Shown here: positions 18,438 to 49,760 of the stretch, piece after piece
Layout: every line of letters begins with the position of its first letter
Numbering within the stretch: position 1 is the first letter of the stretch
DNA from: an uncultured Nitrospiraceae bacterium
GTDB taxonomy: Bacteria; Nitrospirota; Thermodesulfovibrionia; UBA6902
NCBI GenBank assembly: GCA_964393845.1
Contig: CAYMUX010000001.1
Location: 17,556-81,555, forward strand
Direction: 5' to 3'
DNA length: 64,000 nt
The notes under the pieces: model-generated
Seen by the model: only the letters and a program-made list of their open reading frames with translations
Told to the model about the DNA's origin: nothing
The model's database searches: none
Translations under genes and position numbers: made by a program

Positions 18438-20381
18438 ATGGGAATCAGCGATTTAAGAGAAAGAAGAATAATATTCTTGCTGTCAGCAGGGGTAATTACC
18501 GGTTCAATAATCGGGCTTATTACATCTTTTTATTTCATCCTGTCAAATCGGTATATCCAATATGAAATGTATAGAATAGCGGCTTTTGTTTTTCGAGAAA
18601 ATATGAATTACAGTATTCTCTTTACTCTTGTCGGATTTGCGGGATTGTATATGCTCTGGTTTCTGCTCGTAGAAAAAATAAAATTTAATAAAATAAAAGT
18701 TGAATATTTCTATAAATTGGTAATCGTTATTTCCTTTATATGTATAGTCACTGATTTATTACTTAGGGTATTCGTAGATATTCCTTTACTATACGGGCTA
18801 AAAGATTTATTAAGAATATCGCATCGGTTTCTGCTGGGGCCAATGACGTTCCAGAAATTATTAGATACGGTAAACTCATTTCTTACAGGTTACATTATTT
18901 TAATTTGCATTGGCGCTATTGCCGTTCCCATTATATATCGCTTGCTCAAGAGGTTACCAACGGAAAAATTATCAAACTGTGCACAAAAGAAATATTTTGC
19001 GCATTCAGCTCTTGTTTTAGGTGCTTTTATATTAGTTTTAAACTTGAGTATTGTTATCGATAGAAGGATAAATACTCAGGATGGACCAAATGTTATTTTT
19101 ATTGTTGTTGACGCCCTGCGGGCGGATCATATCAGTAATTATGGATACGACAGATTAACCAGCCCGAATATTGATAGCCTGATCAACGATGGAATAGTGT
19201 TTGAAAATGCTATTAGCCAAGGCAACATGACAACGCTTTCAATGCCTTCCATGTTTACGGGACTATATACATCGGATCACGGAGCTCATATGTTGCGAAA
19301 AATAGAAACCAGATTTGCTCCTGTAAGTGATAGATTCACTACTATCGCAGAAGTTTTTAATAATGCCGGTTATATTACACAGGCGGTATCATGTCAGCCG
19401 TGGGTTTCTCCTGAAACTGGCTATGGCCAGGGATTTGACAGCTTTGAAATAGTCAGCGATTCAAGTGATAACTTATCTGATCAGATAACTGTTGAAAGAG
19501 CGCTTGAATGGATAAATAAGAAATCAGGTAAGAAATTTTTTCTTTTCCTTAATCTAATGGGTCCACATACACCATATAATCCGCCGCCGCCATATGATAC
19601 CCTGTATTTCTCAGAATATAAAAATAAATCAAAATTGATTTCGGATTTGAATAATTTCTATTTGCAGCAGAATCACGGAGAATATTACAAATTATTAATG
19701 GATACTAAAGGGGAGAATATATCCAAAGACGAGTTGAATCAATTAATGTCTTTATATGACGGGAAAATAACCTACACCGACTATCAAATCGGCCGTTTGA
19801 TTGATAAGTTGAAAGCGTTGAATATTTATGACAATACCATGATAGTTTTGACTGCGGACCATGGAGAGGCCTTCCTTGAGCATGGTATGTTTTTACACGG
19901 CAGAAGTCTTTATAATGAAGAACTTCATGTTCCGCTTATTATGACTTATCCGAATAAATTACCAAAGGGAAGGAAAGTAAAAGATATCGTGGAACTTGTT
20001 GATATATTACCTACAATCGCAAGTGTCACAGGCATCCCTGTATCCGGAATAAAAATGCGTGGAGTATCTTTATATCCTATGACTGATAATTCTGATCGTT
20101 TTGTTTATAGCGAAGGGAGCGGTCGCGTGAAATACAGGACTGATAAATGGAGCCTTATTTGTGACAGCAGCGATTGGATTTGTGAGCTCTATGATTTGGA
20201 AAATGACCGCAGCGAATTAAATAACATAATAGAAAGCAATCATAATATTGCTTCTGAGATGAAAAAAGGACTTTTTAAAGTAGTTGATAATAAAATGTAT
20301 CCTTCGGTCAGCACTGTCAAGGCCAGGATAATCCCCGAGGAAACAGAGAAGACTTTAAAATCATTGGGCTATTTGCGATAG
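18438..20381 (+). CDS. Membrane-anchored sulfatase-fold (alkaline phosphatase superfamily) transferase with LtaS/EptA/OpgB-like architecture and a C-terminal LKSLGYLR tail
   Basis: About 5 N-terminal TM helices. PNVIFIVVDALRADH metal-binding block. TSPNIDSL. TADHGEAF ... HG. Nucleophile region TTLSMPSM (no C/S-x-P-x-R). Confidence 0.75.
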   Translation: MGISDLRERRIIFLLSAGVITGSIIGLITSFYFILSNRYIQYEMYRIAAFVFRENMNYSILFTLVGFAGLYMLWFLLVEKIKFNKIKVEYFYKLVIVISFICIVTDLLLRVFVDIPLLYGLKDLLRISHRFLLGPMTFQKLLDTVNSFLTGYIILICIGAIAVPIIYRLLKRLPTEKLSNCAQKKYFAHSALVLGAFILVLNLSIVIDRRINTQDGPNVIFIVVDALRADHISNYGYDRLTSPNIDSLINDGIVFENAISQGNMTTLSMPSMFTGLYTSDHGAHMLRKIETRFAPVSDRFTTIAEVFNNAGYITQAVSCQPWVSPETGYGQGFDSFEIVSDSSDNLSDQITVERALEWINKKSGKKFFLFLNLMGPHTPYNPPPPYDTLYFSEYKNKSKLISDLNNFYLQQNHGEYYKLLMDTKGENISKDELNQLMSLYDGKITYTDYQIGRLIDKLKALNIYDNTMIVLTADHGEAFLEHGMFLHGRSLYNEELHVPLIMTYPNKLPKGRKVKDIVELVDILPTIASVTGIPVSGIKMRGVSLYPMTDNSDRFVYSEGSGRVKYRTDKWSLICDSSDWICELYDLENDRSELNNIIESNHNIASEMKKGLFKVVDNKMYPSVSTVKARIIPEETEKTLKSLGYLR

Positions 20382-20385
20382 GATA

Positions 20386-22251
20386 TTGACATTGAAGAAA
20401 AAAATACCTGTCATTCTATTCCTGATAATCCTCTTTGCCCTTGCTCTGAGATTATACGGAATTAATTTTGATGTCCCCCATCCGGACGATTATATAACTG
20501 TTCAGGGGGCCATGTATTTTGGACCGGCGCACATTCCTCTCAACAGGTTTGGACTTTATGGTCTCTATGTATGGCCGGCATTTACCATGGTCTATATTCA
20601 ATCGGTCCTTTTTTCGCTGTATTTCCTTGTTGGAATGATATTGGGCATATTTCCGGATATAGAGAGTTTTAGAAATCTTTATCTTTCAGATCCATCAAGC
20701 TTTCATCTGATAGGCCGTATAATGAGTGTTTTATTTGGAATAAGTACTGTCTGGGTTTTATATTATCTGGGAAAAAGGTTATATAATCATAATGTCGGCT
20801 TGATGGCCGCACTTTTTCTTTCTGCAAGTTTTATTCACAGCTTCCATTCGCAATATATAAGGCCTGATATTCCTTCGACGTTTTTTTCTGTATTAGCGAT
20901 TTTGTATTGTCTCCTGATCCTGGAAAAAGGAGATTTGAAATTATATGTAATGGCAGGTGTTATGACAGGACTTGCTACAGCGACAAAATTTACATCAGCT
21001 GTTCTTATACTTCCGGTAATTGCAGCACATATTATGGCTGAAGGAAAAGAATTATCAAGCGATAAACATAAGACGAAGGCCAAAGAGCTGCTTCCTGTTA
21101 TCTTAATAATTTCCGGCGCTGTTATGTCGGCATTAAGCATGATGTTCATATTTAATTTAATTAGCCTGGATGGGGTACGCTTTTCTCCTCATGAAGAACT
21201 CAATCAAAAGGTCATTGTTTCCCTGAGGCTCTTAATAAAGGCCCTTGCCGTGCCGGGATTCTTTTTAATTATCGCGGGTGTTTTATGCAAGTGTTCAACT
21301 TCTGTAAGAAATATTACAGTTAACCTGTTGAGTAACAGAAAACTATTATTTAGTATGGCTGCCGCCTTTTTGAGTTTTATGGTTTTTGATCCTATTTTTT
21401 TCCTTGATATCAAAAATCAAATCCGGATATTTCTTACTGACGCTAATTACGGAGGCAAAAATGTCTATTTTATCGGCATAGAAAACCGGGGGTTTTTAGA
21501 TAATATCTGGTGGTATATTAAAGGGCCTATTAACTGGGGATCAGGGCTTCATATTGAGATCATGGCCGGACTTGGTCTATTGATTGTTCTAATCAGGAAA
21601 AGAAGAGAGGATTTGCTTGTCCTTTTGTTCCCGATGATCTTTCTTCTTGTTCTCGGGGCTGGTAAATATAAGTGGGAACGTTATGCAGTAACATTCATGC
21701 CTTTCGTAGCGTTATACGCCGCTTATTTTCTTTACTCTCTTACGGAGAAGATTTTTACATATAGAATGCAAGAGAACCAGAAGGCTGTTGTAACGGCATT
21801 CTTATCAATTATTCTTGTTTTGCCGATGACATACGATATCCTGCGCTATGATTACCTTCTTATCCATAAAGACACGAGGGTGACGGCCAAAGAGTGGGTG
21901 GAAAATAATATTGTTTACGGAAGCAAAATCGGGCAGGATGCATATACATGCGATCTTTCAGATGAAATCTACAAGATCACAAGAAAATATTCTTTAAGTG
22001 ATGTGCCTCTTAATTATTACATTGACAATAACTTTGAGTACTTGATAGTAAGTGATACACAATACAAGAGGTATATGGCGAACGCTTTGAAATATCCTGA
22101 AAACGTTAAGTTTTACACTTCACTTTTTTCGGAAGGAAAACTGATAAAAGAGATAGAGCCGGGAAATGATCTGTGGCCGAAACCCGATGAAAGGTTTTTA
22201 AAGTATCATATGCATGTTTCGCCTACAATAAAAATATATAAAATTAAATAA
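20386..22251 (+). CDS. GT-C-like polytopic membrane glycosyltransferase (PMT_2/DUF2723-like)
   Basis: N-terminal TM helix then a YGINFDVPHPDD loop. Many TM helices plus a C-terminal soluble domain. TTG start. Confidence 0.5.
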   Translation: MTLKKKIPVILFLIILFALALRLYGINFDVPHPDDYITVQGAMYFGPAHIPLNRFGLYGLYVWPAFTMVYIQSVLFSLYFLVGMILGIFPDIESFRNLYLSDPSSFHLIGRIMSVLFGISTVWVLYYLGKRLYNHNVGLMAALFLSASFIHSFHSQYIRPDIPSTFFSVLAILYCLLILEKGDLKLYVMAGVMTGLATATKFTSAVLILPVIAAHIMAEGKELSSDKHKTKAKELLPVILIISGAVMSALSMMFIFNLISLDGVRFSPHEELNQKVIVSLRLLIKALAVPGFFLIIAGVLCKCSTSVRNITVNLLSNRKLLFSMAAAFLSFMVFDPIFFLDIKNQIRIFLTDANYGGKNVYFIGIENRGFLDNIWWYIKGPINWGSGLHIEIMAGLGLLIVLIRKRREDLLVLLFPMIFLLVLGAGKYKWERYAVTFMPFVALYAAYFLYSLTEKIFTYRMQENQKAVVTAFLSIILVLPMTYDILRYDYLLIHKDTRVTAKEWVENNIVYGSKIGQDAYTCDLSDEIYKITRKYSLSDVPLNYYIDNNFEYLIVSDTQYKRYMANALKYPENVKFYTSLFSEGKLIKEIEPGNDLWPKPDERFLKYHMHVSPTIKIYKIK

Positions 22252-22269
22252 AAGTATAAGGAGACGACA

Positions 22270-23685: not shown

Positions 23686-23695
23686 GGGATCAGAA

Positions 23696-25455: not shown

Positions 25456-25481
25456 TGTCACGCTATAGGATAGGGGATTAA

Positions 25482-27688: not shown

Positions 27689-27735
27689 TTTGAATAAGGC
27701 AGAAACTTCATTAATTATGCTTTCAGGAGGATATA

Positions 27736-29892
27736 ATGGGAATAAAGACCGGTTCCAGTTCAAGTTATTATAAGGATATCATTAAGTCGGTTGTAATTTG
27801 GACTTTGTGTATCTCCCTTTTTGAATCTTTTAAAATTACAATCAGCACTTCGGTGCGTTATATAGCGCCGTGGGATGTGTTTGTGATTTCTGTTGCCCTT
27901 TTCTTCACTTATTTGGTTATATGGGCGGCAGTCATGTTTCCGGCAGCTTTTTTGCTGAAGTCGTTTTTACAAAAAAGAGATATGTCTGAAGGAAGTCTGA
28001 CGACTATTTATTGCTCCGTAGCGCTGTTTTTGTATGAATTATTCTGGATTGTATATAAGTCCGCTTATGAAGGATTAACAAACACTTCCTACGGGGTGTT
28101 TTTTCCGTTGGCTCAATTAGTCCTTGCCGGTGTTATCGCATACGCTGTATTTCAACTTGCAGAGTTTCTCAGGAATAAGGGGCATCTGAAGCAGTTAGGG
28201 CTTAAATTATTCAGTTTATGGTTGACTGTCTTAGCTTACATGATGTTGAACATTTATTTGAAGTCATCCTTTGAACAGGGATTTAACTCGCTGTATTCTG
28301 TTTCACTCTTTGTATTATTTCTGGTGGTTTATAAAATATTGGTTGCCTTATTCAGAAAAGTCAGACTGAAATCTACCATGTCTGTTTTACTCCTGATTGT
28401 CACAAGAATAAAACTTTTTATAATCATCTCAGTTTCAGCAGCGCTTCTGTTTGGTTTTGCCTATTACGGCATGGCAAAAAAGACCGACATATCCTCAAGT
28501 CCTAATATCTTATTTATTTCAATCGATACCTTAAGGGCCGACCATCTCTCCTGTTACAGTGAAATCAAGGGGAAGACTTCACCTAACATTGACAGGATTG
28601 CTCAGAGCGGATATATATTTTCTAATGCGTATTCACCAACTACATGGACCCTTCCCGGACATGCTTCAATGATGACGGGTTTATTTCCTTCTTCCCATAA
28701 AGCGGACAGGAGCCTTCACCAGACATTAAGCCGTCCTGTAGATCCACTGTCTCCCTCTGTACTGACTCTTGCAGAAATCTTAAGAGAGAAAGGGTATCTG
28801 ACGGCCGGTATTATCAGCAACCCTTTCGTTTCCCGTTCATTCGGCATGGACCAGGGTTTCGAGTTTTATGATGATCAGGTGGATCTCTTCGAAGACGTGC
28901 GGTATTTATCATTGAAAGATGAATCAATGCTCTTTAAGCTTATCGAGATACTGAAGATAATTGATACAAACGATTATGATGGGGAGAGAAGAGTTGTGGA
29001 GGTAAATGAAAAGGCCTTCAGATGGCTTAACGATAACAAGGACAAGAAAGAACCCTTTTTTCTGTTTCTACACTACAATGAACCTCACTATAAATATGAA
29101 CCGCCGTCTCCATATAACAAAAACAGCGGCGGACGGGAGTTGCCTTATTTTGATGACATAGCGAGATTGAATAAAGGAGAATTTACTCTTAGTTCTTCAA
29201 GTCTAAAGGATATGCTGGATCTTTACGATGGAGAGATAACCTATCTGGACCATTACCTGGGATTGCTTTTTAATAAGCTTGATGATTGGCAGCTTCTAGA
29301 AAATACGGTTTTGATAATCACATCAGATCATGGAGAGAGTTTTAACGAGCATGAAGTATGGCAGCATGGAAACAGTTTATATGAAGAGCAGATTCGCGTA
29401 CCATTAATTATCCTCTATCCCAAATTAAAACCTGACGGCGTTATTAATAAAGATATTGTGCAAACTGTTGATTTGATGCCGACCGTTCTGGATCTTCTGA
29501 ACATCCCTGTCCCTGGAAATGTTCAGGGAAGAAGTCTTGTTCCCCTTCTAAAAGGAGAGACGGAACGCAACTTCAATCTCGCCTTTGCGGAAATTCGTCC
29601 GGACATTAACTGGAAGGCCCAAAACCCGAAATATGGAATTGGCATGAGAGCAGTGATTTATAAAGAGTGGAAGTATATTCAATCTGATGACGGAAAAGAA
29701 GAACTTTATAATTTAAGTGATGACCATAACGAAAATATTAATTTGATTCACAAAGAAAAAGAAAAAGCGGATGAAATTCGTAAAATATTAAACTCATGGT
29801 CAAGTGCCGTCACTCTTAATAATGGTGAAAAGCAGGAGAAAATAGACAGCGGCAGGCTGGAACAATTACGCTCGCTCGGGTATCTGAAGTAG
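27736..29892 (+). CDS. Membrane-anchored sulfatase-fold transferase (LtaS/OpgB-like) with C-terminal LRSLGYLK tail
   Basis: Multi-TM N-terminus. NILFISIDTLRADH. TSPNIDRIA. Nucleophile region WTLPGHASMMTG (Thr, His in place of Arg). TSDHGESF. Confidence 0.75.
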   Translation: MGIKTGSSSSYYKDIIKSVVIWTLCISLFESFKITISTSVRYIAPWDVFVISVALFFTYLVIWAAVMFPAAFLLKSFLQKRDMSEGSLTTIYCSVALFLYELFWIVYKSAYEGLTNTSYGVFFPLAQLVLAGVIAYAVFQLAEFLRNKGHLKQLGLKLFSLWLTVLAYMMLNIYLKSSFEQGFNSLYSVSLFVLFLVVYKILVALFRKVRLKSTMSVLLLIVTRIKLFIIISVSAALLFGFAYYGMAKKTDISSSPNILFISIDTLRADHLSCYSEIKGKTSPNIDRIAQSGYIFSNAYSPTTWTLPGHASMMTGLFPSSHKADRSLHQTLSRPVDPLSPSVLTLAEILREKGYLTAGIISNPFVSRSFGMDQGFEFYDDQVDLFEDVRYLSLKDESMLFKLIEILKIIDTNDYDGERRVVEVNEKAFRWLNDNKDKKEPFFLFLHYNEPHYKYEPPSPYNKNSGGRELPYFDDIARLNKGEFTLSSSSLKDMLDLYDGEITYLDHYLGLLFNKLDDWQLLENTVLIITSDHGESFNEHEVWQHGNSLYEEQIRVPLIILYPKLKPDGVINKDIVQTVDLMPTVLDLLNIPVPGNVQGRSLVPLLKGETERNFNLAFAEIRPDINWKAQNPKYGIGMRAVIYKEWKYIQSDDGKEELYNLSDDHNENINLIHKEKEKADEIRKILNSWSSAVTLNNGEKQEKIDSGRLEQLRSLGYLK

Positions 29893-36227: not shown

Positions 36228-38390
36228 ATGAAATTAGAGAAATTGAGCTTCAGAAAAAATTTGTACTCCGGTGCAATACATGGTGCAGTCGCCTGGATAA
36301 TTTACGGGATAGTGGAATGTTTATTTTCGACTATCTTGCCATGGCTGACCAAACCTCATTATGACTATATTCCAATGCACTGGGGTTTTGCGTTTTTATT
36401 GTTATTCGTGATTTATCCCCTTATCGGTTCAATCCTGGGAGGATTATTGGCATTAGTTTTATCTAAAGCAGGGGGGAAGGTCAATTTTCTTCGGGAAAAT
36501 CACATTGAAGGTTTATATCAGTCGGCGGCGGTATTAACGGTCGTTTTGGTATTTTCCGTAAACCTTATCATTCAATTACCCTTAGATGACCTTTCTGTGC
36601 TGCTTGCTTTGTTAATGGCCGTCATATTTACAGTCGCGATTATAATGAGCTTACTCTCGAATAATAATTTCAAGAAGCTTCGATTCCTAACGAATCCCTG
36701 GGTCACGAGTTTATCACTGATCGGATTGCTCTGGGTAAGCAAGGAATTATTGAGAGACCATTCTGTTACCTTCAAAGCTGTTGTAGTCCCGGTTTATCTA
36801 TTTATATGCTTTTTTGTTTCATCTTTAATTCAGAAAAAGATTAATGCGAAAGGATTTAGAGAATCTTCAGACAAAAAGCCTGCAATATCAATCAGCTATT
36901 TTGCCTTCCTCATGGCTGCTTCATTAATACTTATTTGTACAAGTTTAATTATGATCCAGAGCCCTATCAGGACAAAGTGGAGTGTTAAATCGTCCCATAA
37001 AGATCGAGAACGTCCTAACGTAATATTGATATCCATGGATACAGTACGTGCAGACCATCTCTCTTTATACGGATACGAAAGGGACACGACTCCGAATCTC
37101 AAAAAGTTTGCGGAAGAGGCTACCTTATATACCCATGCAGTATCTTCAGGGGACATGACCTTAACTTCTCATGCGTCTATTTTTACTGGTATGTATGCAA
37201 GACAGCATGGAGCACATCGTGAGCCGCCTGATTATGTGGCTGGCCGGCCGTTAGATGAAAAGTTTCATACACTGGCGGAAAAACTGTCTGAAAACGGCTA
37301 TCTTACAATAGGAGTTGTATCAAATTACTCTTATCTTGGAAAGGGTTTTTATCTTGATCAGGGATTCAACTATTACGATTATCGGACACAGGTTCCGTTT
37401 ATTGGAAGAGCACATCAATATTATCTCAGACAAAATATTCGTGAAGCCGCGAAATATTATGCCCCTCCTTCCCTGTATGAGGAAACGCGCTCTGCGGAAG
37501 ACATAAATAATGAAGTTTTCAAGCTCGTTGATAAAGTAAAAAAAGAGAATGCTCCGTTCTTCCTTTTTGTCAATTACATGGACGCACACTGGCCATATAT
37601 CCCCCCTCCTCCGTTCGATTCTTTGTACCCGGGCAAGAAAGGGGTTTTTACTTTATCCCATTATCTGCGACTTAAAAAACAAGTTATGAATTTTGAGCGC
37701 AATATTACAGAGGAAGAACAGCGCCATCTGATATCGCAATATGACGGTGGTATTGCTTACATCGACTTTCAAATCAGAGAATTATGTCAGCGACTGAAAG
37801 AAGCAGGTTTATATCAGAACTCTATCATAATTATTACGTCAGACCATGGTGAGGCTTTTGGGGACAGGAATTTGATGGAACACGGGGTGTCCGTATATCA
37901 GGACCTTGTTTATGTGCCCCTGATTATCAAATATCCGTACCAGAAAAATAACAAAGTAATTGATGAACCTGTCAGTGTTACCGATATTATGCCGACTGTC
38001 CTGGAAGTCCTTGGATACAAAATACCTGAAGACGTCCAGGGAAATAGTTTGTTGAGTAATTCACGCGAAAGGTCATTAAGTGTTGTGAGCGAATCATTTT
38101 TTAAAGAAAAAGGGATCAGGTATAACTCAAGATTTGACCGTATTGAACGTGCAATATATTCCGGCTCTCTTAAATATATCAGTTCCACAACAGGAAAAAG
38201 GGAGCTTTACGATCTTCTTAAGGACCCTAAAGAGAGGGAAAACATATACAATTCTGATAGCAGCATATCTAAGGATTTTGAGAACAGACTTAACCAATGG
38301 CTTGAAATGAATGTTTATAAAGCCGGATCAACCACGGAATTAAAACAAGAAGTTATTGATCGCCTTAAGACATTGGGTTATATCCAGTGA
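36228..38390 (+). CDS. Membrane-anchored sulfatase-fold transferase with C-terminal LKTLGYIQ tail
   Basis: Multi-TM N-terminus. NVILISMDTVRADH. TTPNLKKFA. Nucleophile region DMTLTSHASIFTG. TSDHGEAF. Confidence 0.75.
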   Translation: MKLEKLSFRKNLYSGAIHGAVAWIIYGIVECLFSTILPWLTKPHYDYIPMHWGFAFLLLFVIYPLIGSILGGLLALVLSKAGGKVNFLRENHIEGLYQSAAVLTVVLVFSVNLIIQLPLDDLSVLLALLMAVIFTVAIIMSLLSNNNFKKLRFLTNPWVTSLSLIGLLWVSKELLRDHSVTFKAVVVPVYLFICFFVSSLIQKKINAKGFRESSDKKPAISISYFAFLMAASLILICTSLIMIQSPIRTKWSVKSSHKDRERPNVILISMDTVRADHLSLYGYERDTTPNLKKFAEEATLYTHAVSSGDMTLTSHASIFTGMYARQHGAHREPPDYVAGRPLDEKFHTLAEKLSENGYLTIGVVSNYSYLGKGFYLDQGFNYYDYRTQVPFIGRAHQYYLRQNIREAAKYYAPPSLYEETRSAEDINNEVFKLVDKVKKENAPFFLFVNYMDAHWPYIPPPPFDSLYPGKKGVFTLSHYLRLKKQVMNFERNITEEEQRHLISQYDGGIAYIDFQIRELCQRLKEAGLYQNSIIIITSDHGEAFGDRNLMEHGVSVYQDLVYVPLIIKYPYQKNNKVIDEPVSVTDIMPTVLEVLGYKIPEDVQGNSLLSNSRERSLSVVSESFFKEKGIRYNSRFDRIERAIYSGSLKYISSTTGKRELYDLLKDPKERENIYNSDSSISKDFENRLNQWLEMNVYKAGSTTELKQEVIDRLKTLGYIQ

Positions 38391-38462: not shown

Positions 38463-40526
38463 ATGACAGCTAAAAAATCTTTCATTTTACTCCAGCGAAT
38501 AATTTTTGTTTCATTTACATTAATATTCCTGAAAGTCGCTTTTTATAAATGGGATGGATATTCCTTTTATATGCGGTTTACAGATTTTCTGCCTGACCTG
38601 TCATTATCATTCATATTGTGGACAATCCCAGGCGTTTTTATTGCCTTTTTCTTATGGCTCATCGCATATGGAATTCACAAAACAATAAAAAGCGTTCCGC
38701 TTGAATACTCGATTGCCTGGATTATTATTATTATTATATTAACTGCAATCAGGCACATTTTCTTTGTTGACAGATTTAATAATAGCTTGACTGGTCTAAA
38801 TGATTTCACAACTTTGTTGATAAGCGGCATTTTATCAGGAGTTATTGTTTTCTTAATCAATAAACATACCGAAGCATTTCTCTCCGGGGTAAATACTCGC
38901 ATAACTCCTTTGGTCTGGCTTTTTGCTGTATTATTGGTAATTGCGTTGCCTTGCTCCGGATGGAGTGTCTTCAGAAAAGAACCTCCAACAGATAAGTACT
39001 TTAAGGATGACAGCGCTCATGCTTCTGGTCTCAATAAAAAAAGTCCCAATATAATTCTGGTAACATGGGATGCTTTAACTGCACTAGATATGGATTTGTA
39101 TGGATATGATAGACCTACCACGCCTTTTCTGTCTGAATGGGCCAAAGATGCGGTTGTATTTAAGCGGGCTTATTCTGCATCCAACTGGACAGTACCAGCC
39201 TCTATGAGTTTAATGACCGGACAAAGGGTCTGGACGCATAAGGTGTGGTATGATGCTTTAAATTCTCCAGTCAAAAATTATGCGAACAATTTACCTCATA
39301 TTTTGAAGGAAAACGGATACAATATTTATGGTTTAGTCCAGAATCCTCATGCTCACCCCGATACTTTAGGGATAGGACCAAATTTTTTAACAAAAGATCA
39401 TGCAACTAAATTTAATAAATTTTTAATCAGAGGTGAGTTTCATAGTATTAAAAAGTTTTTTGAAAAGAGGCCTATCATTATTAAATTTATGAAGAAATAC
39501 CCTTTTATATTTATTATGAAGAATGTTAAAAACCTGACTGAAAGAACTAATATGAAACAGTTTAAAAGTAATTTCATTGAAAGCGAAAAGAGAATCCAGA
39601 ATCAGCAATTAATTCAAAATACCGATGACAATCCCCGGAATGCGTATCCTCCGAAATTGGTCTATAATCGGTTTTTAAGATACATTTCATCTGGAAGTCA
39701 AAGGGCTGATGATAAACAGCTGCACAAACCTTTTTTTGCATGGCTTCATCTTTATCCTCCCCACGAGCCGTATCTTCCCCCGGAATCATACAGAGGTATA
39801 TTCGGTGGAGAAAGCAGTAAACCCGCTGATCTGAAATATACAGATGCGCCGGAAGACTTTGAGTATAAGCCTGAAGATCAACCGAGAGTAGATGCGTTAA
39901 GAAAGCGTTATGATGAATTCATATTATATTCGGACGAACAATTCAGGATTTTCATAAAGAGCCTCTCAAGAAAGATGGATTTATCCAACACGATAATTAT
40001 TTTCTCCGCAGATCATGGAGAAAGTTTCTCTCATGGGTATAAGGGGCATGTCGGTGATTATCTTTTTGAACAACTTGTTCATGTGCCGTTAATAATCAAA
40101 ATTCCAGGTGAAATTCCCGGTAAAGTAATAAATATGCCTGTTGAGCAGATAGACATTGCCCCGACTATTCTTGACCTGGCGGGTATTGCTGTTCCCCCCT
40201 GGATGGAAGGAAGATCTTTGTATCCCTTGATTGAAGGCAAATCACTGGAGCCCCGGCCCCTATTTTCAATGCAGCTTATTAAGAATCGATCCTTTGGTCA
40301 GCCGATTTCTACGGGTACTATATCGATATGGTATGGAGACTATAAGCTTATTTATTACTTAAAAAATAAAAAATCACTGCTCTTTAACCTCAGAGCTGAT
40401 CCTGAAGAAATACAAAATATATTTAACGATGAACCCGAGACAGCGAACAGGCTTTTGAAATTAATAGAAGTCAATCTTTCAGGCGCTAATAATAAGATTA
40501 CACAGTTCATTGAATATAATAATTAG
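38463..40526 (+). CDS. Divergent membrane-anchored sulfatase-fold protein (metal site altered, no LGY tail)
   Basis: Multi-TM N-terminus. NIILVTWDALTALDMD replaces the DTLRADH block. TTPFL. NWTVPASMSLMTG. SADHGESF. Ends ...FIEYNN. Confidence 0.65.
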   Translation: MTAKKSFILLQRIIFVSFTLIFLKVAFYKWDGYSFYMRFTDFLPDLSLSFILWTIPGVFIAFFLWLIAYGIHKTIKSVPLEYSIAWIIIIIILTAIRHIFFVDRFNNSLTGLNDFTTLLISGILSGVIVFLINKHTEAFLSGVNTRITPLVWLFAVLLVIALPCSGWSVFRKEPPTDKYFKDDSAHASGLNKKSPNIILVTWDALTALDMDLYGYDRPTTPFLSEWAKDAVVFKRAYSASNWTVPASMSLMTGQRVWTHKVWYDALNSPVKNYANNLPHILKENGYNIYGLVQNPHAHPDTLGIGPNFLTKDHATKFNKFLIRGEFHSIKKFFEKRPIIIKFMKKYPFIFIMKNVKNLTERTNMKQFKSNFIESEKRIQNQQLIQNTDDNPRNAYPPKLVYNRFLRYISSGSQRADDKQLHKPFFAWLHLYPPHEPYLPPESYRGIFGGESSKPADLKYTDAPEDFEYKPEDQPRVDALRKRYDEFILYSDEQFRIFIKSLSRKMDLSNTIIIFSADHGESFSHGYKGHVGDYLFEQLVHVPLIIKIPGEIPGKVINMPVEQIDIAPTILDLAGIAVPPWMEGRSLYPLIEGKSLEPRPLFSMQLIKNRSFGQPISTGTISIWYGDYKLIYYLKNKKSLLFNLRADPEEIQNIFNDEPETANRLLKLIEVNLSGANNKITQFIEYNN

Positions 40527-40557
40527 GGTAAATCGATTGGCAGGAAGATAATCAATC

Positions 40558-41502: not shown

Positions 41503-41520
41503 ATATCGTTTTGTAATACT

Positions 41521-42360: not shown

Positions 42361-42396
42361 CAGCGATTCATATTCAAATTCTTAGATAGATATGCC

Positions 42397-43710: not shown

Positions 43711-44794
43711 AGATATTCAAACAGGAGATTTGAGTATGGATCGTACCGGCTTTTTTGGAAAACTTCCAACAGCATCTATACCAATCATGATCTGTTTTGC
43801 CATACCTTCTTTTTTACTCATAAGCGCTTATCTCTATATGACTGTCTTTTATCATAAGCTCTGGCTTTTTAATACCGTTGTTCATGAGAATGGAAAATAT
43901 ACACTTCTGGAGGTGATTTTTTATTTCAAACACTTCAATTGGGAGATGCCGATAAAGATTCTATATGCTGTTTTTATCGTAGGGACTTTTTATTACTACG
44001 GGAATCCTTTAGAAACTAAAAGAAAGGTTCTTGCGCGGAGTAATTCTTCAAAGTGGATTTTGATCAGTCTTGTTTCTGTCCTGACTATAATGTCCGTAAC
44101 CACTATCTCAAACGTTATTCAGGATGGTTTCAAGGAAACGGTTCTCGGCTTCTTCCAGTACAAGACCACTGATGCAAGGCCCCCTGAATTCGGTTCTCAC
44201 TGGAGGAATCATTTCCTCAGCAATATTGTCCTTTTTTCAGTCACGGCTGTTGTTATAATGCTTTACCGGTTGATATTTTGTAACGGGATGTGGGAGAGGA
44301 GGAAATTTTATTATCTTCTCCCGTTCTCGATTGCGTTATTTGTCTGCCTTACTTTTATTTACGGATTTACCATGGACCCATTTATTAATCCCAGCTACCT
44401 TGGACATCAATTAAGGGAGATATTCGGGACCGACCTGCCGATCACTATGCTTCTGGCAACAGGACTTTTAATATATATGGAGGGAAAGTTTGATTCGAGA
44501 AAAGAGATTAATGAAATAATGAAGAAAGAAAAGGGCATAATAATCCGGCATCTTTCTGTCCTTATTATTCCGGCGGTTCTGCCGACGGTTTATTTGATTT
44601 TGAAGGTATTATCTCTTGATGTGTCGGGTGAAATAGCAAATATCGGAAGAACTGCAAACTGGTCAGTCCTTGATCTGTTTGCCTGGCACTTTTTTGAACA
44701 TTCACTTGATTATATCCTGGTATGTTCTCTTGTATGTTTTCTCTATCTACTGACTTTAAAGAAGGAATTGAGGCGGACAATAATTGAAAAATAA
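43700..44794 (+). CDS. Hypothetical polytopic membrane protein
   Basis: About 8 hydrophobic segments. No recognised catalytic motif. Start uncertain (an alternative ATG lies at 43736). Confidence 0.45.
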   Translation: MRNRDIQTGDLSMDRTGFFGKLPTASIPIMICFAIPSFLLISAYLYMTVFYHKLWLFNTVVHENGKYTLLEVIFYFKHFNWEMPIKILYAVFIVGTFYYYGNPLETKRKVLARSNSSKWILISLVSVLTIMSVTTISNVIQDGFKETVLGFFQYKTTDARPPEFGSHWRNHFLSNIVLFSVTAVVIMLYRLIFCNGMWERRKFYYLLPFSIALFVCLTFIYGFTMDPFINPSYLGHQLREIFGTDLPITMLLATGLLIYMEGKFDSRKEINEIMKKEKGIIIRHLSVLIIPAVLPTVYLILKVLSLDVSGEIANIGRTANWSVLDLFAWHFFEHSLDYILVCSLVCFLYLLTLKKELRRTIIEK

Positions 44795-45716
44795 CCTGGT
44801 AACGATCTTAAAAGTCCTCGTATCCGGTGTCCTTCTATACCTGATTTCTAAAGAAATTGACTGGAGCCAGTTAATCGTTTCCATAAAGCAGGGACGATTC
44901 ATTTATCTGTTTATCGGGATAATTTTAGGATGCGGATTTAACGTGGTAAAATTTATCAAGTGGCATTATCTGATAAGGACAGGAGACCATAATTATTCAT
45001 TTCTAGATGGAGTAAAATCTTACATGATCGGCAATAGCCTGGGCTTGATCACGCCTATGCGCGCCGGCGACCTCGGCAGGGCCCTGTATTTTCATGTGGA
45101 CGACCGTCCCAGGATCATAGGGCTTACGGTCATGGACAGATTTACCGAGCTTGTTGCTGTTCTGGCTCTCTCTATCGGAGGATGTTTTGTCCTTCTGAAT
45201 AAAGGAGTGGGAATGATCGTCGTATCGCTTGCCTTCTTTGGTATTTTATCGCTTTATGCTGCCGGGTTCCTCCATGGGATAGTTAAAAGAATTATTCCGG
45301 ATGGAAGGATTGGCGGGAAAATAATAAAATTGATGGATATCTTAAGATTACTGGACAAAAATACTGTATCTATTGTTCTGCTACTTTCATTTGTCGCATT
45401 TGTGTTGTGTATTATACAGTTCTACTTTCTCATAATTGCATTCGAGAAAATATCATTGTCATCCGTGTTTCTGGCTACCCCATTAGTGACACTCTCTTCG
45501 ATACTCCCTGTGAGTATTATGGGGCTTGGGGTCCGGGAAGGAATTTCAATTGTCCTTCTTGCAAAATTCAATATATCTGCTGCAACGGCTGTCTCCGCGG
45601 CTTTTCTTTTTTTCCTGATAAATAATGTTTCAATAAGCGGTATTGGAATTTATTATCTGTCAAAGGTTAGAATAAAAACTCAAACTCAAGAGGCAAACTG
45701 TGAATTTAAGATTTAA
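44784..45716 (+). CDS. Flippase-like / lysylphosphatidylglycerol-synthase-TM-region family membrane protein
   Basis: LVSGVLLYLISKEIDW ... NSLGLITPMRAGDLGRALYF, typical of the PF03706-type flippase-like domain. About 8 TM helices. Confidence 0.55.
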   Translation: MKNNLVTILKVLVSGVLLYLISKEIDWSQLIVSIKQGRFIYLFIGIILGCGFNVVKFIKWHYLIRTGDHNYSFLDGVKSYMIGNSLGLITPMRAGDLGRALYFHVDDRPRIIGLTVMDRFTELVAVLALSIGGCFVLLNKGVGMIVVSLAFFGILSLYAAGFLHGIVKRIIPDGRIGGKIIKLMDILRLLDKNTVSIVLLLSFVAFVLCIIQFYFLIIAFEKISLSSVFLATPLVTLSSILPVSIMGLGVREGISIVLLAKFNISAATAVSAAFLFFLINNVSISGIGIYYLSKVRIKTQTQEANCEFKI

Positions 45717-47817
45717 TCGATTTTTAAATATAAAAAGACATCTGCTTACAGGTATCCTTGCTTTATTTCTGATATGCTGCGCAGATTATGCCTTTGCATA
45801 TATCGGTCCCGGTGCGGGCTTTGCACTGGTAACATCGTTTTTTGTAATATTTGTTTCTCTAATTATCGCTTTCGTTTCATTCCTCATATGGCCGTTCCGG
45901 CATATCAGGTGGATGTTTTTAAGGAAAAAACGAGACAGAAAAACGGATGTCAAAAAAGTGGTTGTATTAGGTCTTGATGGTATGGATCCCTGTATTGCCG
46001 AAAAATTTATGGCAGAAGGGAAACTGCCGAATTTTCAGAAGCTGAAAGACACAGGATGCTTTTCGAGACTTCGCACAACATTCCCCGCTGTGTCGCCGGT
46101 CGCATGGTCTTCATTTGCAACGTCTGTCTACCCTGGGAAACATAATATCTTTGATTTCCTCACTCCGAACAGAAACTATTATATAGCCGATTTATCTTCC
46201 GTTCATATAGGCACGGTAAAACGCAATCTGAAAATTGGTAAATACAAGATACCCTTGGGAAAGCCGGAGATCAAACTGCACCGGAAGAGTCAAACTTTCT
46301 GGAAGGTGCTGGGTGAATACGGGATTTTCAGTACGATCTTGAGAGTGCCTATAACGTTCCCGCCGGAAAAATTTTTCGGCAATTGCCTTTCCGCAATGTG
46401 CATTCCCGACCTGAAAGGAACGCAAGGTTCTTTTACTTACTATACGTCTGACTCAAAACAAACAGGCGAGATGTACGAAGGCGAAAGAATCTTCGTAGAA
46501 AATAATAACGGAACAATTACAAGTTATTTCCCCGGTCCGGCCAATCCTATATTGATAGAGGAAGCGCCGTTAAGAATCCCCTTTAAAGTGGAAGTGAAAG
46601 ATCCCGACAACGCGGTCCTGCATCTCCCTGATCAAAAAATAAAATTGAGGCGCGGACATTACTCCGACTGGATCAAGCTGCGTTATAACTTAGGCCTGGG
46701 CATGAAAATATCAGGCATTGCAAGGGTATTGATTAAATCTTTTCAGCCGCACTTTTCAATGTACGTAACTCCGATTAATATCGATCCGGAAAAGCCCGTT
46801 CTTCCCATTTCTCATCCCGGTATATTTTCGGTGTACCAGGCCAAGCTGCATGGAAGTTTTTCTACGCTCGGACTTTCCGAAGATACATGGGCCCTTAACG
46901 AACGAATTATAGATGAGGATGATTTTATTAAACAGGCTTACGATATTCATGAAGAGCGGGAAAAGATGTTTATGCATGCGTTGAAGAGTACCAGCCAGGG
47001 ACTTGTAGTCTCTGTTTTCGATATAACGGACCGCATGCAGCATATGTTTATCCGGTTCCTGTATGATGACCATCCTGCCGTCAAGGACGCAGATGTCAAG
47101 AAGTACAGGAATGTAGTTGAGGACCTCTATGTTAATATGGACAAGCTTCTGGAAAAAACGCTGAGTTCTCTGGACGATGATACGGTCTTATTCGTTATCT
47201 CAGATCATGGCTTTAAACCTTTCATGTGGGGTTTTCACGTAAATTCCTGGTTACACAAAGAGGGCTATATGGTCTTGAAATCGGGAGACGAGAGCAAAGC
47301 CTGGTTTGAAAATGTCGACTGGAGCAAAACAAGGGCTTATTGCCTCGGAATGGCAGGCATCTATATTAATATCAAAGGCCGCGAAGCTAAGGGGATCGTT
47401 GCCAGGGATGGTGAAGAAGCTGAATTAAGAAAAGAAATTAAAGAAAAACTTGTCAAATTTATAAACCCGGCGACAAATCAGCCTGTGCTGAATGATGTCT
47501 TCGATTCAAAAGAGATTTTTTCAGGCCCGTATAAAGAAAACGCCCCTGATCTGATCCTGGGATACAACGAAGGGTACAGGGTTTCCTGGGATGCTGCGAT
47601 AGGAAAGGTCACAAAAGATATTATTGAGGATAACACAAAGAGCTGGAGCGCCGACCACTGCATTGACCCGCGATTGGTGCCGGGGGTGCTTTTTTCAAAC
47701 AGAAAAATTAATTCCGACAGCCCGTCAATCGTTGATATGGGCGCAACCATTTTAAACCTTTTCGGTATCAACCCACCGGCTTATATGGACGGAAAGAATA
47801 TTTTAGAGGAAAAATGA
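45700..47817 (+). CDS. Membrane-anchored type I phosphodiesterase/nucleotide pyrophosphatase-fold (alkaline phosphatase superfamily) protein
   Basis: Two N-terminal TM helices. VVLGLDGMDP. TTFPAVSPVAWSSFATSVYPGKHNIFDF (NPP-like Thr nucleophile block T-F-P ... TG-x-YP-x-HGI). ISDHGF. Confidence 0.7.
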   Translation: MNLRFNRFLNIKRHLLTGILALFLICCADYAFAYIGPGAGFALVTSFFVIFVSLIIAFVSFLIWPFRHIRWMFLRKKRDRKTDVKKVVVLGLDGMDPCIAEKFMAEGKLPNFQKLKDTGCFSRLRTTFPAVSPVAWSSFATSVYPGKHNIFDFLTPNRNYYIADLSSVHIGTVKRNLKIGKYKIPLGKPEIKLHRKSQTFWKVLGEYGIFSTILRVPITFPPEKFFGNCLSAMCIPDLKGTQGSFTYYTSDSKQTGEMYEGERIFVENNNGTITSYFPGPANPILIEEAPLRIPFKVEVKDPDNAVLHLPDQKIKLRRGHYSDWIKLRYNLGLGMKISGIARVLIKSFQPHFSMYVTPINIDPEKPVLPISHPGIFSVYQAKLHGSFSTLGLSEDTWALNERIIDEDDFIKQAYDIHEEREKMFMHALKSTSQGLVVSVFDITDRMQHMFIRFLYDDHPAVKDADVKKYRNVVEDLYVNMDKLLEKTLSSLDDDTVLFVISDHGFKPFMWGFHVNSWLHKEGYMVLKSGDESKAWFENVDWSKTRAYCLGMAGIYINIKGREAKGIVARDGEEAELRKEIKEKLVKFINPATNQPVLNDVFDSKEIFSGPYKENAPDLILGYNEGYRVSWDAAIGKVTKDIIEDNTKSWSADHCIDPRLVPGVLFSNRKINSDSPSIVDMGATILNLFGINPPAYMDGKNILEEK

Positions 47818-49760
47818 AAAATAACTTTTTTACTTCAGGCCTGATATTTATTTTAATAATAATTTCTTTTACCGCTGCTGTTGCAGGGGACAAGAAATTT
47901 ATCATACTCGGGATTGATGGTATGGATTACACCATGTTGAGCGAGATGATAGAACGGGGTGAAATGCCCAATTTTGCAAAATTCAGGGAGTCAGGGGATT
48001 TTAAGCCGCTTTTAAGCAGCATCCCGCCACAAAGCCCGGTCGCCTGGTCGAATTTTATCACAGGGATGGACCCCGGCGGACATGGTATTTTTGATTTTAT
48101 TCACAGAACGCCCGAAGATCTTCTTCCTTACCTTTCTACTTCAAAAACCGAATCACCGTCAAAAGTTCTTTCTATCGGGAAATACCGGATACCTTTAAAA
48201 AGCGAAGAGATAAAATTATTGAGAAAAGGGAAACCTTTCTGGGATATTCTTGAAGAACACGGGGTCCCTACAACGATTATTTCAATTCCCGCGAATTTTC
48301 CGTCAATCAAAAGCGCCGGACGCTCTCTGTCCGGGATGGGAACACCGGATATCCTGGGCTCTTATGGCTCATTCACCTATTTAACATCGGACCCGAAGGA
48401 CAGAGACAAAAAGGTAACCGGCGGCGTAATACATTCAGTTGAAGTCAGAGACAATCAGGTCGATAGTTTTATTCCGGGACCGGCTAATACACTTGTCGAG
48501 GGCAGGCCTTCAACGCGAATTGACGTTAAGACGTATATTGATCCGGAGAACAGTGTTGCAAAAATTGTGGTCAACGGTAACGATATCCTGTTATCCAAAG
48601 GGGAATGGAGCGAGTTTGTCCGGATCAAATTTGAGATGATACCCCATATAGTCAGTGTTTCAGGGATCGTCCGGTTTTATTTAAAAGAAGTCCATCCTTA
48701 TTTTAAACTCTATATTTCCCCGGTCAATATTGATCCCTCTGATCCTGCCATGCCGATTTCAAACCCCGAAGATTATGCAAAAGAATTATATAAGAACATC
48801 GGCTTTTTTTATACTCAGGGGATATCGGAAGATACAAAGGCGCTTGATAACGGCATCTTGTCGGAGGATGAATTTCTGCAGCAGGCCCAGGTCGTGCTGA
48901 GAGACAGGCTGAAGATTCTTGATTATGAATTGAAGAGGTTTAAAAAGGGGCTGCTCTTTTTTTATATTTCTACTATAGATACGAGCAGTCACATGTTCTG
49001 GCGATATATTGCAAAGGACCATCCTGACTATAACACCGAGGAGTACAAAAAATACCGGAATGTCATGTATGACCTCTATAAGAGAATGGACGTTATTCTG
49101 GCCGATGTCCTTAAGCGCGTTGATGATAATACTGTTGTCATGATCATGTCGGACCACGGGTTCGCGGATTTTCAATGGCAGGTGAACATTAATTCATGGC
49201 TGGCAAAAGAAGGGTATATAGCAATGCTGCCCGACTGGACGCCTGAACAGGAATATTTTGAATCAGTGAAATGGTCCGGGACAAAGGCGTATGCGCTCGG
49301 CATCAACGGATTATATATCAATCTCAGAGACCGGGAACTGCACGGCATAGTCGGCCCCGGCAGCGAATATAAAAATCTTGTCGATGAAATAGCTTCAAAA
49401 CTGGAAGCGATGACAGACCCGAAAACCGGAAAGCGGGTCATAAGACAAGCGTTTAAAAAGGATGAGGCATATCATGGTTCCTCCATGGATAACGCTCCGG
49501 ACATAGTCGTCGGTTTTTACCGCGGCTATCGTTCCTCTGATGAAAGCGCGCTCGGTCAGTTTTCCAGAGATATCATAATCGAAAATACAAGAAAATGGGG
49601 CAGTGATCATTGCATGGATTACCGCGAGGTCCCGGGGATTGTTCTTGTAAATAAAAAAATAACTCTGAAAGAACCGGAGCTTTATGATATTGCGCCCACA
49701 ATTCTTAAAGAGTTCGGTATCGATCCTTTACCGGAAATGGTTGGGAAATCCATCTATTAG
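47814..49760 (+). CDS. Membrane-anchored type I phosphodiesterase/NPP-fold protein, tandem paralog
   Basis: Signal/anchor. FIILGIDGMDY. PPQSPVAWSNFITGMDPGGHGIFDF. MSDHGF. Confidence 0.7.
   Translation: MKNNFFTSGLIFILIIISFTAAVAGDKKFIILGIDGMDYTMLSEMIERGEMPNFAKFRESGDFKPLLSSIPPQSPVAWSNFITGMDPGGHGIFDFIHRTPEDLLPYLSTSKTESPSKVLSIGKYRIPLKSEEIKLLRKGKPFWDILEEHGVPTTIISIPANFPSIKSAGRSLSGMGTPDILGSYGSFTYLTSDPKDRDKKVTGGVIHSVEVRDNQVDSFIPGPANTLVEGRPSTRIDVKTYIDPENSVAKIVVNGNDILLSKGEWSEFVRIKFEMIPHIVSVSGIVRFYLKEVHPYFKLYISPVNIDPSDPAMPISNPEDYAKELYKNIGFFYTQGISEDTKALDNGILSEDEFLQQAQVVLRDRLKILDYELKRFKKGLLFFYISTIDTSSHMFWRYIAKDHPDYNTEEYKKYRNVMYDLYKRMDVILADVLKRVDDNTVVMIMSDHGFADFQWQVNINSWLAKEGYIAMLPDWTPEQEYFESVKWSGTKAYALGINGLYINLRDRELHGIVGPGSEYKNLVDEIASKLEAMTDPKTGKRVIRQAFKKDEAYHGSSMDNAPDIVVGFYRGYRSSDESALGQFSRDIIIENTRKWGSDHCMDYREVPGIVLVNKKITLKEPELYDIAPTILKEFGIDPLPEMVGKSIY

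Follow-up and report, generated by a model that had tools for sequence, protein, structure and literature searches.

What would six sulfatase-fold proteins, encoded side by side among glycan genes, do if none of them carries the residue on which sulfatase chemistry depends? We addressed this question in a stretch of 64,000 nucleotides from an uncultured Nitrospiraceae bacterium of sediment (assembly GCA_964393845.1, contig CAYMUX010000001.1, positions 17,556 to 81,555), which we call the window and whose numbering is used throughout. An earlier reading of the same DNA (the original prediction) had described eight membrane-anchored transferases of the alkaline phosphatase superfamily embedded in a glycan locus, six with a sulfatase fold and a Thr nucleophile and two with a nucleotide pyrophosphatase/phosphodiesterase (NPP) fold. 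All eight open reading frames (ORFs) were found where they had been placed, on the + strand, and the Pfam and NCBIfam gene content of the window supported the glycan context. The best explanation we can offer for the sulfatase-fold six, although we put it slightly below an even chance, is that they are periplasmic phosphoryl transferases acting onto an exosortase-type glycan. The six genes are listed below.

18438..20381, + strand: W18438, sulfatase-fold Thr-type enzyme of 647 aa; PF00884 4.6e-56; about six hydrophobic segments; LGY tail; nucleophile site NMTTLSMPSMFTG
27736..29892, + strand: W27736, canonical member of 718 aa; seven transmembrane helices; D264, T305 (TLPGH), H451, D531-H532, H544; tail LRSLGYLK
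32036..33925, + strand: W32036, paralogue with the degenerate site TMVSV; core D/T/H/DH/H retained; LGY tail
34055..36172, + strand: W34055, paralogue with the canonical site TRPSH; LGY tail
36228..38390, + strand: W36228, paralogue with TLTSH; LGY tail
38463..40526, + strand: W38463, the most divergent paralogue; DALTALD instead of DTLRADH; TVPAS; insert in the catalytic domain; no LGY tail

Catalytic domain, active site and membrane anchor

All six proteins matched the Pfam family PF00884 (Sulfatase), with E-values of 1e-47 to 5e-56, and each also matched PF16347 (SGSH_C). Their mutual identity is 26-34% (E 1e-22 to 1e-84). These E-values mark them as real paralogues and not a chance likeness, and the low identity marks them as old ones and not recent duplicates.

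To describe the active site, we aligned the six window paralogues with their 120 best database homologues (n=126). The formylglycine column of sulfatases was occupied by Thr in 126/126 sequences, and the first metal ligand (Asp) and the Asp-His pair were conserved to the same extent. The C/S-x-P-x-R signature was absent from the six paralogues and from the 120 homologues, and no cryptic form of it was seen. The nucleophile strings quoted in the original prediction were all present in the translations; TTLSMP, TLPGH, TMVSV, TRPSH, TLTSH and TVPAS sit at the Cys/Ser column of C/S-x-P-x-R, and a T-x-P-x-H motif was present in 102 of the 126 aligned family members. Residues D264, T305, H451, D531, H532 and H544 (W27736 numbering) were invariant among the six paralogues and 13 distant homologues, and the core D, T, H, D-H, E and H were retained in all six. 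The replacement of the DTLRADH block that had been reported for the 38463-40526 copy was confirmed, W38463 having WDALTALDMD against D[TA][LV]RADH in the other five, with the first, metal-binding Asp kept. Thr is not convertible to formylglycine, and within the alkaline phosphatase superfamily Thr and Ser nucleophiles go with phosphoryl, not sulfuryl, transfer.

A second departure from sulfatases was found downstream of the nucleophile. Where sulfatases and phosphonate monoester hydrolases (PMH) have a sulfate-binding Lys after D-[HNQ]-G, the window proteins have His: His544 aligned with the Lys of 5g2v, and PMH 4uph carries Lys in the region where W18438 carries His. This second His lies 11-13 residues after Asp-His-Gly-Glu (12 in four of the six). 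When residues 414-502 of W18438 were searched alone, the best solved match was the catalytic domain of C. jejuni EptC (4tn0, E 7e-9). The two aligned over a common DHGE..E.G..LHG block, in which EptC likewise has His and not Lys, and MCR-1, MCR-2 and NmEptA were also matched.

Comparisons of the whole domain pointed to other relatives. With phmmer, the PDB matches were S1 carbohydrate sulfatases, arylsulfatases, choline sulfatase and PMH (E 1e-29 to 1e-15), and neither LtaS nor EptA was among the best 60 of 89 matches; no solved structure of the Thr type was among the best 60 matches of each of three PDB sequence searches. In the NCBIfam ranking the arylsulfatase model PRK13759 came top at 154-177 bits, followed by PehA and choline-sulfatase in either order, and the EptA, MCR, CptA, LtaS and YejM profiles scored 18-70 bits against cut-offs of 404-1250. 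Foldseek with the AlphaFold2 (AF2) model of W27736 recovered PMH (2vqr, 4uph, 2w8s) and S1 sulfatases at a target-normalised template-modelling score of 0.6-0.7, with no phosphotransferase structure (LtaS, EptA, MCR) in the top 50 matches. On the question whether the six fall into the formylglycine clade, the evidence is split: in sequence and fold they are nearest to formylglycine enzymes, yet they hold no cryptic C/S-x-P-x-R.

The two comparisons can be set against each other. With the S1 formylglycine sulfatases and PMH (2vqr, 5g2v, 6ust), which are the best matches (phmmer E 1e-29, Foldseek E 1e-20, template-modelling score 0.6-0.7), the window proteins share a two-subdomain architecture of PF00884 plus a C-terminal subdomain and the positions of the nucleophile and metal ligands. 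Unlike these enzymes, they have Thr for Cys/Ser, His for the Arg of C-x-P-x-R and again His for the sulfate-binding Lys after DHG, and they carry a polytopic membrane anchor. With EptA, EptC and MCR-1 (and more loosely LtaS, OpgB/OpgE and BcsG) they share an N-terminal polytopic transmembrane domain followed by a periplasmic domain of alkaline phosphatase fold, the Thr nucleophile, a one-metal ligand set (acidic residue, Thr, Asp-His), the DHGE block described above and, putatively for the window six, a role in decorating envelope glycans. The whole-domain likeness to this second group is weak (20-70 bits against cut-offs of 500-1250), the scaffold and the C-terminal SGSH_C subdomain are sulfatase/PMH-like, the 5-7 hydrophobic segments of the six (seven helices in the W27736 model) compare with 4-5 transmembrane helices and give no EptA_B_N match, and the T-x-P-x-H motif and an L..LGY tail are specific to the window family. 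From these alignments the catalytic domain is best described as a sulfatase/PMH scaffold with a putative EptA-type one-metal Thr active site. By the same evidence the six are neither members of the LtaS/EptA families nor true sulfatases, and they may work like LtaS/EptA despite standing outside those families.

The original prediction had given all six a polytopic N-terminal membrane domain, which was borne out by the hydropathy scan for all six and, for W27736, by the AF2 helices and the charge bias. A Kyte-Doolittle scan found 5-7 hydrophobic segments within the first 170-245 residues of each of the six, a pattern that agrees with a transmembrane nature of these regions. The AF2 model of W27736 (predicted local distance difference test, pLDDT, 72; predicted template-modelling score, pTM, 0.68) has seven N-terminal helices followed by the catalytic domain. 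With helix positions placed by eye on the sequence, guided by those seven helices, 14 K/R residues fell on the N-terminus and alternate loops and 4 on the remaining loops. This charge bias predicts that the N-terminus of W27736 is inside and that, after seven transmembrane helices, the catalytic domain is outside. A signal peptide or lipobox stands at the start of most short family members, as would be expected if the domain is exported. No Pfam family matched the N-terminal membrane domains at E <= 0.01, and two sub-threshold DUF matches lay below E = 1. Of the LtaS/EptA/OpgB architecture that had been proposed, the order of a polytopic membrane region and an extracytoplasmic Thr-type domain stood, but the catalytic domains themselves turned out to be closest to formylglycine sulfatases and PMH.

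The array, the family and the NPP module

We compared the array with those of relatives. The genome GCA_020723105.1 (L001, 86% identity) carries orthologues of W27736 (86%), W34055 (79%), W36228 (75%) and W38463 (77%) in the same order; orthologues of W18438 and W32036 were absent from the examined part of the L001 contig. In GCA_963986635.1 (L003, 44-48% identity) only the W27736 type (48%) and the W36228 type (44%) were found, so that close relatives hold from 2 to at least 4 sulfatase-fold copies. Tandem arrays also occur elsewhere, with five genes in Gemmatimonadota and four each in Thermoanaerobaculia, a deltaproteobacterial metagenome-assembled genome (MAG) and KSB1. The array is plastic among close relatives, and six copies lie at the high end, being neither unique nor fixed. 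The number of genes had been called far beyond that of typical systems; the size is indeed unusual, but 4-5-gene tandem arrays in unrelated phyla deprive it of uniqueness. Within and just past the array, the GC content falls to 0.33-0.36 (30-34 kb and 40-42 kb) against 0.40-0.45 elsewhere in the window, and these low-GC stretches are consistent with mosaic acquisition of some of the sulfatase-fold paralogues.

A HMMER scan over 1.84 billion cluster representatives (50% identity clusters) yielded 26,598 family representatives at E <= 1e-30 and 76,018 at E <= 1e-10. In a separate search for related loci, the matches listed include members from Acidobacteriota, Planctomycetota, Gemmatimonadota, Aminicenantes, KSB1, Calditrichota, deltaproteobacterial lineages and Patescibacteria, with Haloarchaeobius and Aenigmatarchaeota among the archaeal carriers. 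The GTDB representatives among these listed matches included no close relative, the best identity being 38%; the closest relatives that bear a name are MAGs with the label Thermodesulfobacteriota or Nitrospirae. Database names for these proteins are 'sulfatase', 'arylsulfatase A-like enzyme' and 'sulfatase-like hydrolase/transferase'. For the architecture count we used the best 138 new representatives, in 103 of which the catalytic Asp motif could be located; 65 of the 103 have at least four hydrophobic segments upstream of it.

A C-terminal [DE]..L[KR].LGY[ILV]x tail was present in 106 of 120 homologues and in five of the six window paralogues, and in homologues fused to tetratricopeptide repeats it marks the end of the catalytic domain. 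Together with the T-x-P-x-H motif, this tail marks a very large, mis-annotated and uncharacterised branch of the alkaline phosphatase superfamily to which the six belong. The same L..LGY tail ends a 63-aa ORF at 49777-49968, and an NPP-like subgroup of about 500 aa (L029, L031, L069, L082, L084) is also LGY-tailed. Because the tail is found on three unrelated classes of neighbouring proteins, a common docking or structural role is suggested.

The second part of the predicted array consists of the two NPP-fold genes, which are accompanied by two small ORFs.

45700..47817, + strand: NPP-A (W45700), NPP-fold protein of 705 aa; two N-terminal hydrophobic segments; D93, D96, S132, D444, H448, D502, H503, D652, H653
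47814..49760, + strand: NPP-B (W47814), NPP-fold protein of 648 aa; signal/anchor segment; full bimetallo ligand set; Ser74 nucleophile; beta-rich insert at about residues 100-310
49777..49968, + strand: 63-aa ORF, weakly ribbon-helix-helix-like, no signal peptide; C-terminus ...ERLKGLGYIS
49971..50795, + strand: W49971, 274-aa membrane protein without Pfam or NCBIfam match; fourth member of the NPP module

As had been expected of them, both NPP-fold proteins matched PF01663 (Phosphodiest; cut-off 23), W45700 with 99.6 bits (E 4e-28) and W47814 with 107.3 bits (E 2e-30). They are 40% identical to each other, and the Kyte-Doolittle scan found two hydrophobic segments in W45700 and one in W47814. 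W47814 had no relative in sequence searches of the PDB or NCBIfam, and it is at least 50% identical to proteins of many phyla. Nine of its residues (D35, D38, S74, D389, H393, D447, H448, D598, H599) were invariant in 20 aligned sequences and are all present in W45700 as well. Mapped to NPP residue numbers, D35, D389, H393, D447, H448 and H599 are the six metal ligands and S74 is the nucleophile, with D38 and D598 conserved beside them. The pair has a complete two-metal NPP/alkaline phosphatase site in canonical order, with a Ser nucleophile. By Foldseek, the core of the AF2 model of W47814 (pLDDT 87, pTM 0.87) matched ENPP1/5/6, Xac NPP, the phosphonoacetate hydrolase PhnA and SPAP/PafA at about 11% identity. 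The pair thus shares PF01663, the D/D-H/H plus D/nucleophile/D-H pattern and the NPP core fold with NPP/ENPP and PafA/SPAP enzymes. It differs from these enzymes by the low identity of about 11%, by Ser instead of Thr as the nucleophile, and in that A and B are paired and accompanied by two small proteins; classical NPPs, of about 380-410 residues, lack the beta-rich insert of some 200 residues that W47814 carries at about residues 100-310.

The four-gene NPP module (45700-50795 in the window) recurs in KSB1 and in two Phycisphaerae MAGs, where it abuts sulfatase-like genes. In Aminicenantes the order is an NPP-A type, an NPP-B type, a 61-aa ORF and a 277-aa homologue of W49971. Small ORFs like 49777-49968 follow NPP-like genes in L008, L057, L060 and L087-89 and precede them in L041 and L067, and homologues of W49971 follow the NPP pair in L008, L057, L060, L088 and L089. 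An NPP-like gene lies within 10 kb of a sulfatase-fold family member in 16 of 80 distant loci. At L085 8001-12696 the 993-aa protein P0067 fuses a flippase-like LPG_synthase_TM domain to a T-x-P-x-H sulfatase-like domain, and its end overlaps the start of a 574-aa NPP-like gene that is followed by a GT4 gene; judged by gene content this looks like a minimal version of the window association, mirroring W44784, W45700 and W47814. The eight genes had been described as one array, a description that had to be given up in favor of two modules: the NPP pair, the 63-aa ORF and the 274-aa membrane protein form a separate conserved module, often but not always beside sulfatase-like genes, and in Aminicenantes the 10 kb on either side of the pair hold no sulfatase-like or glycan gene. 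Because it so often adjoins sulfatase-like genes, the NPP module probably shares their phosphorylated substrates, on which it might, for instance, cleave or edit phosphodiesters.

Glycan context of the window

The window holds about 47 ORFs, every one of them on the + strand, with short or overlapping junctions; ORFs of at least 200 aa keep to this single strand throughout. No tRNA genes or Rfam matches were found in the 64 kb. The neighbouring features that bear on the glycan context are as follows.

16757..18391, + strand: GT-C (PMT_2/PMT) glycosyltransferase, interleaved with the sulfatase-fold array
20386..22251, + strand: GT-C (PMT_2) glycosyltransferase, interleaved with the array; kept in L001 and L003
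26228..27688, + strand: BNR/beta-propeller-like protein of 486 aa; weak BNR_2 and lectin-propeller matches
29949..32039, + strand: PMT_2-like GT-C membrane protein, weak (25.4 bits, slightly below cut-off), between two sulfatase-fold genes; kept in L001
44784..45716, + strand: flippase-like LPG_synthase_TM protein; PF03706 5e-36; TIGR00374 45.3 against a cut-off of 43.2; overlaps the start of NPP-A
54445..56340, + strand: XrtA-system polysaccharide deacetylase and FemAB-family PEP-CTERM-associated protein; TIGR03006, TIGR03019

W54445 passed TIGR03006 with 395 bits against a cut-off of 276, and W55291 passed TIGR03019 (FemAB XrtA/PEP-CTERM-associated) with 298 bits against 260. From these matches we read the window as an exosortase (XrtA)-type exopolysaccharide locus. 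The exosortase gene itself (EpsH/XrtA) gave no PF09721 match among the window ORFs and may lie beyond the 64 kb. The window also contains two Wzx-like flippases, GT4 enzymes, a carbamoyltransferase, methyltransferases and two B12-radical-SAM proteins, together with five GT2 proteins of the PgfS/ArnC-like, polyprenyl-phosphate sugar synthase type (below cut-offs) and six GT-C proteins of the PMT_2 type, three of them interleaved with the sulfatase-fold genes. Sulfotransferase, FGE and anSME-type genes were absent from the window ORFs, though a maturase could sit elsewhere in the genome, and the two radical-SAM proteins of the window belong to the B12-binding class, not to the SPASM-type anSME. 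Genes for CDP-alcohols or for another soluble activated phospho-alcohol donor were also absent from the window.

Similar surroundings were seen at greater distance. In the Schekmanbacteria locus L091 a family member lies inside a Wzx/Wzy locus that ends in EpsH/EpsI exosortase genes; another locus has a family member beside GT2, radical-SAM, DUF3473 deacetylase and ALGX genes; and the four-gene array of KSB1 is flanked by GT4, GH39, GHL15 and heparinase-II/III-like genes.

Among known systems, the window resembles Gtr-type and Opt-type O-antigen modification, in which Gtr is a GtrB-like GT2 with a GT-C enzyme and Opt is a plasmid-borne phosphoethanolamine transferase of Shigella. The logic is the same, polyprenyl-phosphate sugar synthases and GT-C enzymes standing beside membrane-anchored enzymes of the alkaline phosphatase superfamily that act at the periplasmic face. 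The window is larger, however, with five GT2, six GT-C and six plus two alkaline phosphatase superfamily genes in a co-directional 64-kb block, its enzyme families differ, and its context is an exopolysaccharide of the XrtA/PEP-CTERM type.

Several further observations were made on the neighbouring genes. The GT-C coordinates (8744-12108, 16757-18391, 20386-22251, 29949-32039 and 52811-54448, + strand) describe an unusually large periplasmic glycosylation toolkit, co-directional with the five GT2 genes, and the GT-C genes equal the sulfatase-fold genes in number (six each). The BNR/beta-propeller-lectin-like gene at 26228-27688 immediately precedes W27736, and likewise the W27736 orthologues of L001-L004, and its product may be a glycan-binding partner. 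At 12816-18391 (+ strand) a PgfS/ArnC-like GT2, a 458-aa SDR epimerase/reductase, a GMC-type FAD oxidoreductase and a GT-C follow each other; the SDR, the GMC and a GT-C are kept in L003, and the GMC and the GT-C are kept in L001, whose examined part starts inside the GMC gene. By analogy, this set resembles a DprE1/DprE2-style epimerisation in which a polyprenyl-phosphate sugar would be oxidised and then reduced before GT-C transfer.

Genes superficially resembling a hopanoid side-chain set lie at 5167-6669, 22270-23685 and 40558-45716 (+ strand). They encode two B12-binding radical-SAM proteins (best match HpnJ, far below cut-off), a YdjC deacetylase (HpnK-like), an unknown 364-aa protein, the LPG_synthase_TM protein and an amine-oxidase-family flavoprotein that matched PRK07233 with 490 bits against a cut-off of 252. 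The trio of flavoprotein, 364-aa protein and flippase-like protein is kept in L003. We considered a hopanoid HpnI/J/K/L/E set made up of GT2, YdjC, B12-radical-SAM, LPG_synthase_TM and amine-oxidase genes and rejected it, since every Hpn model scored far below its cut-off.

Transfer, hydrolysis and the meaning of the family

What we observed concerns the architecture and fold of the proteins, their conserved residues and topology bias, the type of locus and the gene associations seen across phyla. That the chemistry is phosphoryl chemistry, that the group is transferred and not released by hydrolysis, and which donor and acceptor are used, we infer. If the six are periplasmic phosphoryl transferases, the transmembrane domain would let the enzyme reach a phospho-donor embedded in the membrane; a phospholipid head group would be the simplest choice, because the window has no CDP-alcohol genes. 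Characterised membrane-anchored members of the superfamily with 4-5 transmembrane helices transfer phospholipid head groups (bioRxiv 10.64898/2026.09.23.753746). The metal-activated Thr would take the phospho-substituent as a covalent phospho-Thr intermediate and hand it to a hydroxyl of the XrtA-type exopolysaccharide or glycoconjugate. The surrounding PgfS/ArnC-like GT2 and GT-C enzymes would assemble this acceptor glycan and add its side branches at the periplasmic face, and the divergent residues around the Thr may set the donor or acceptor specificity of each paralogue. The combinatorially phospho-decorated polymer of the original prediction, and the head groups named there (phosphoglycerol, phosphoethanolamine, phosphocholine), are conjecture on this evidence.

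Several results weigh against this proposal. None of the six reached a curated NCBIfam cut-off, and in overall sequence and fold they are nearer to hydrolases (sulfatases, PMH) than to LtaS/EptA. Their transmembrane domains have no detectable homology to those of EptA or LtaS, and roughly half of the nearest homologues are lipoproteins or secreted proteins with 0-1 hydrophobic segments. For W27736 the AF2 model is of no more than moderate quality (pLDDT 72). The canonical T-x-P-x-H is absent in four of the six window paralogues, W38463 is without the R, D and H of the DTLRADH block, and no glycan or sulfatase-like gene lies within 10 kb on either side of the NPP module of Aminicenantes. No characterised member of the family was found in the literature.

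The main rival to transfer is hydrolysis, which we regard as somewhat unlikely. The six would then be extracytoplasmic phosphodiesterases or phosphomonoesterases whose task is to trim or edit phosphorylated glycans, to release them, or to cleave intermediates linked to lipid, with the transmembrane domain as a tether only and with the NPP pair performing related hydrolysis. The nearest solved relatives are indeed all hydrolases, the scaffold has the glycan-binding C-terminal subdomain of carbohydrate sulfatases, and glycoside hydrolases and a heparinase-like gene stand beside the KSB1 array. The NPP-fold enzymes with which they co-occur are closest in fold to phosphodiesterases and phosphatases, which points the same way. 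Since many homologues are lipoproteins or secreted proteins without a polytopic anchor, the catalytic domain would be independent of such an anchor, and hydrolysis fits this equally well. However, polytopic anchors of 5-7 transmembrane helices are the commonest arrangement among the nearest representatives (65/103), and in characterised enzymes of the superfamily a polytopic anchor goes with lipid-donor transferases (bioRxiv 10.64898/2026.09.23.753746). The genes are also co-directional among biosynthetic GT2, GT-C and flippase genes, and the active-site block is like that of EptC, which argues for transfer over hydrolysis.

Three further explanations account for parts of the evidence. The Thr might attack the phosphate of a polyprenyl-(pyro)phosphate-linked sugar or glycan supplied by the GT2 or Wzx pathway and hand sugar-1-phosphate or glycan-phosphate on to an acceptor, which would make the six phosphoglycosyl or polymer transferases that form phosphodiester-bridged, teichoic-acid-like structures or ligate the polymer to an anchor. 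The match of six GT-C to six sulfatase-fold genes, interleaved and accompanied by five polyprenyl-phosphate-sugar-synthase-like GT2, the fusion of a flippase-like domain to a family member, and the lack of genes for soluble activated phospho-alcohol donors in the window all speak for it; but the GT-C genes have no detectable association with the family in distant loci, we know of no alkaline phosphatase superfamily enzyme with such an activity, and the idea is drawn purely from gene content, so that we consider it quite improbable. That some or all of the paralogues are non-catalytic scaffolds or sensors like PbgA/YejM is very improbable, with W32036, W38463 and W18438 as the main candidates. 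The degenerate T-x-P-x-H sites, the losses in the DTLRADH block of W38463 and weak YejM profile matches would fit such a role, against which stand the Thr, the metal ligands and both active-site His residues kept in all six and the 77% conservation of W38463 in L001. For the array as a whole a PbgA-like pseudoenzyme was rejected, the catalytic residues being invariant. Least of all do the six look like true sulfatases acting on a sulfated exopolysaccharide, an explanation that we hold to be extremely improbable: they match PF00884 and SGSH_C, and S1 sulfatases are their nearest sequences and folds, but they have no C/S-x-P-x-R, a Thr that cannot become formylglycine and a His for the sulfate-binding Lys, and the window offers no FGE, anSME or sulfotransferase gene.

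A wider reading, which we regard as rather unlikely, would extend phosphoryl transfer to the whole gene association. In it the T-x-P-x-H/LGY enzymes, NPP-A/B, the LGY-tailed small protein and the W49971-type membrane protein would work as a single, so far unrecognised system for phosphoryl transfer outside the cytoplasm. It would occur widely in uncultured diderm phyla and in some archaea, and it would install and edit phosphodiester-linked substituents, or even teichoic-acid-like bridges, on exosortase-dependent polysaccharides or glycoproteins, with the LGY tail as a common docking or sorting element.

Three leads from this analysis are the strongest: the chimera of scaffold and active site, the recurring association with the NPP module, and the common LGY tail. 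Tens of thousands of such proteins are labelled 'sulfatase' or 'arylsulfatase A-like', and 0/126 of the nearest carry the residue needed for sulfatase chemistry. Six paralogues in one array, whose orthologues have come and gone between close relatives, make a ready set of specificity variants. If these enzymes are phospho-transferases or phosphodiesterases acting on exopolysaccharides, metagenomic sulfatase counts would be inflated as a proxy for the degradation of sulfated glycans, for example in Planctomycetota and Acidobacteriota, and a large class of phosphate decorations on environmental biofilm polymers would at present be invisible. The family would also offer a natural experiment, an EptA-like active site placed on a sulfatase/PMH scaffold, and it would bear on how nucleophile and specificity are switched in the alkaline phosphatase superfamily.

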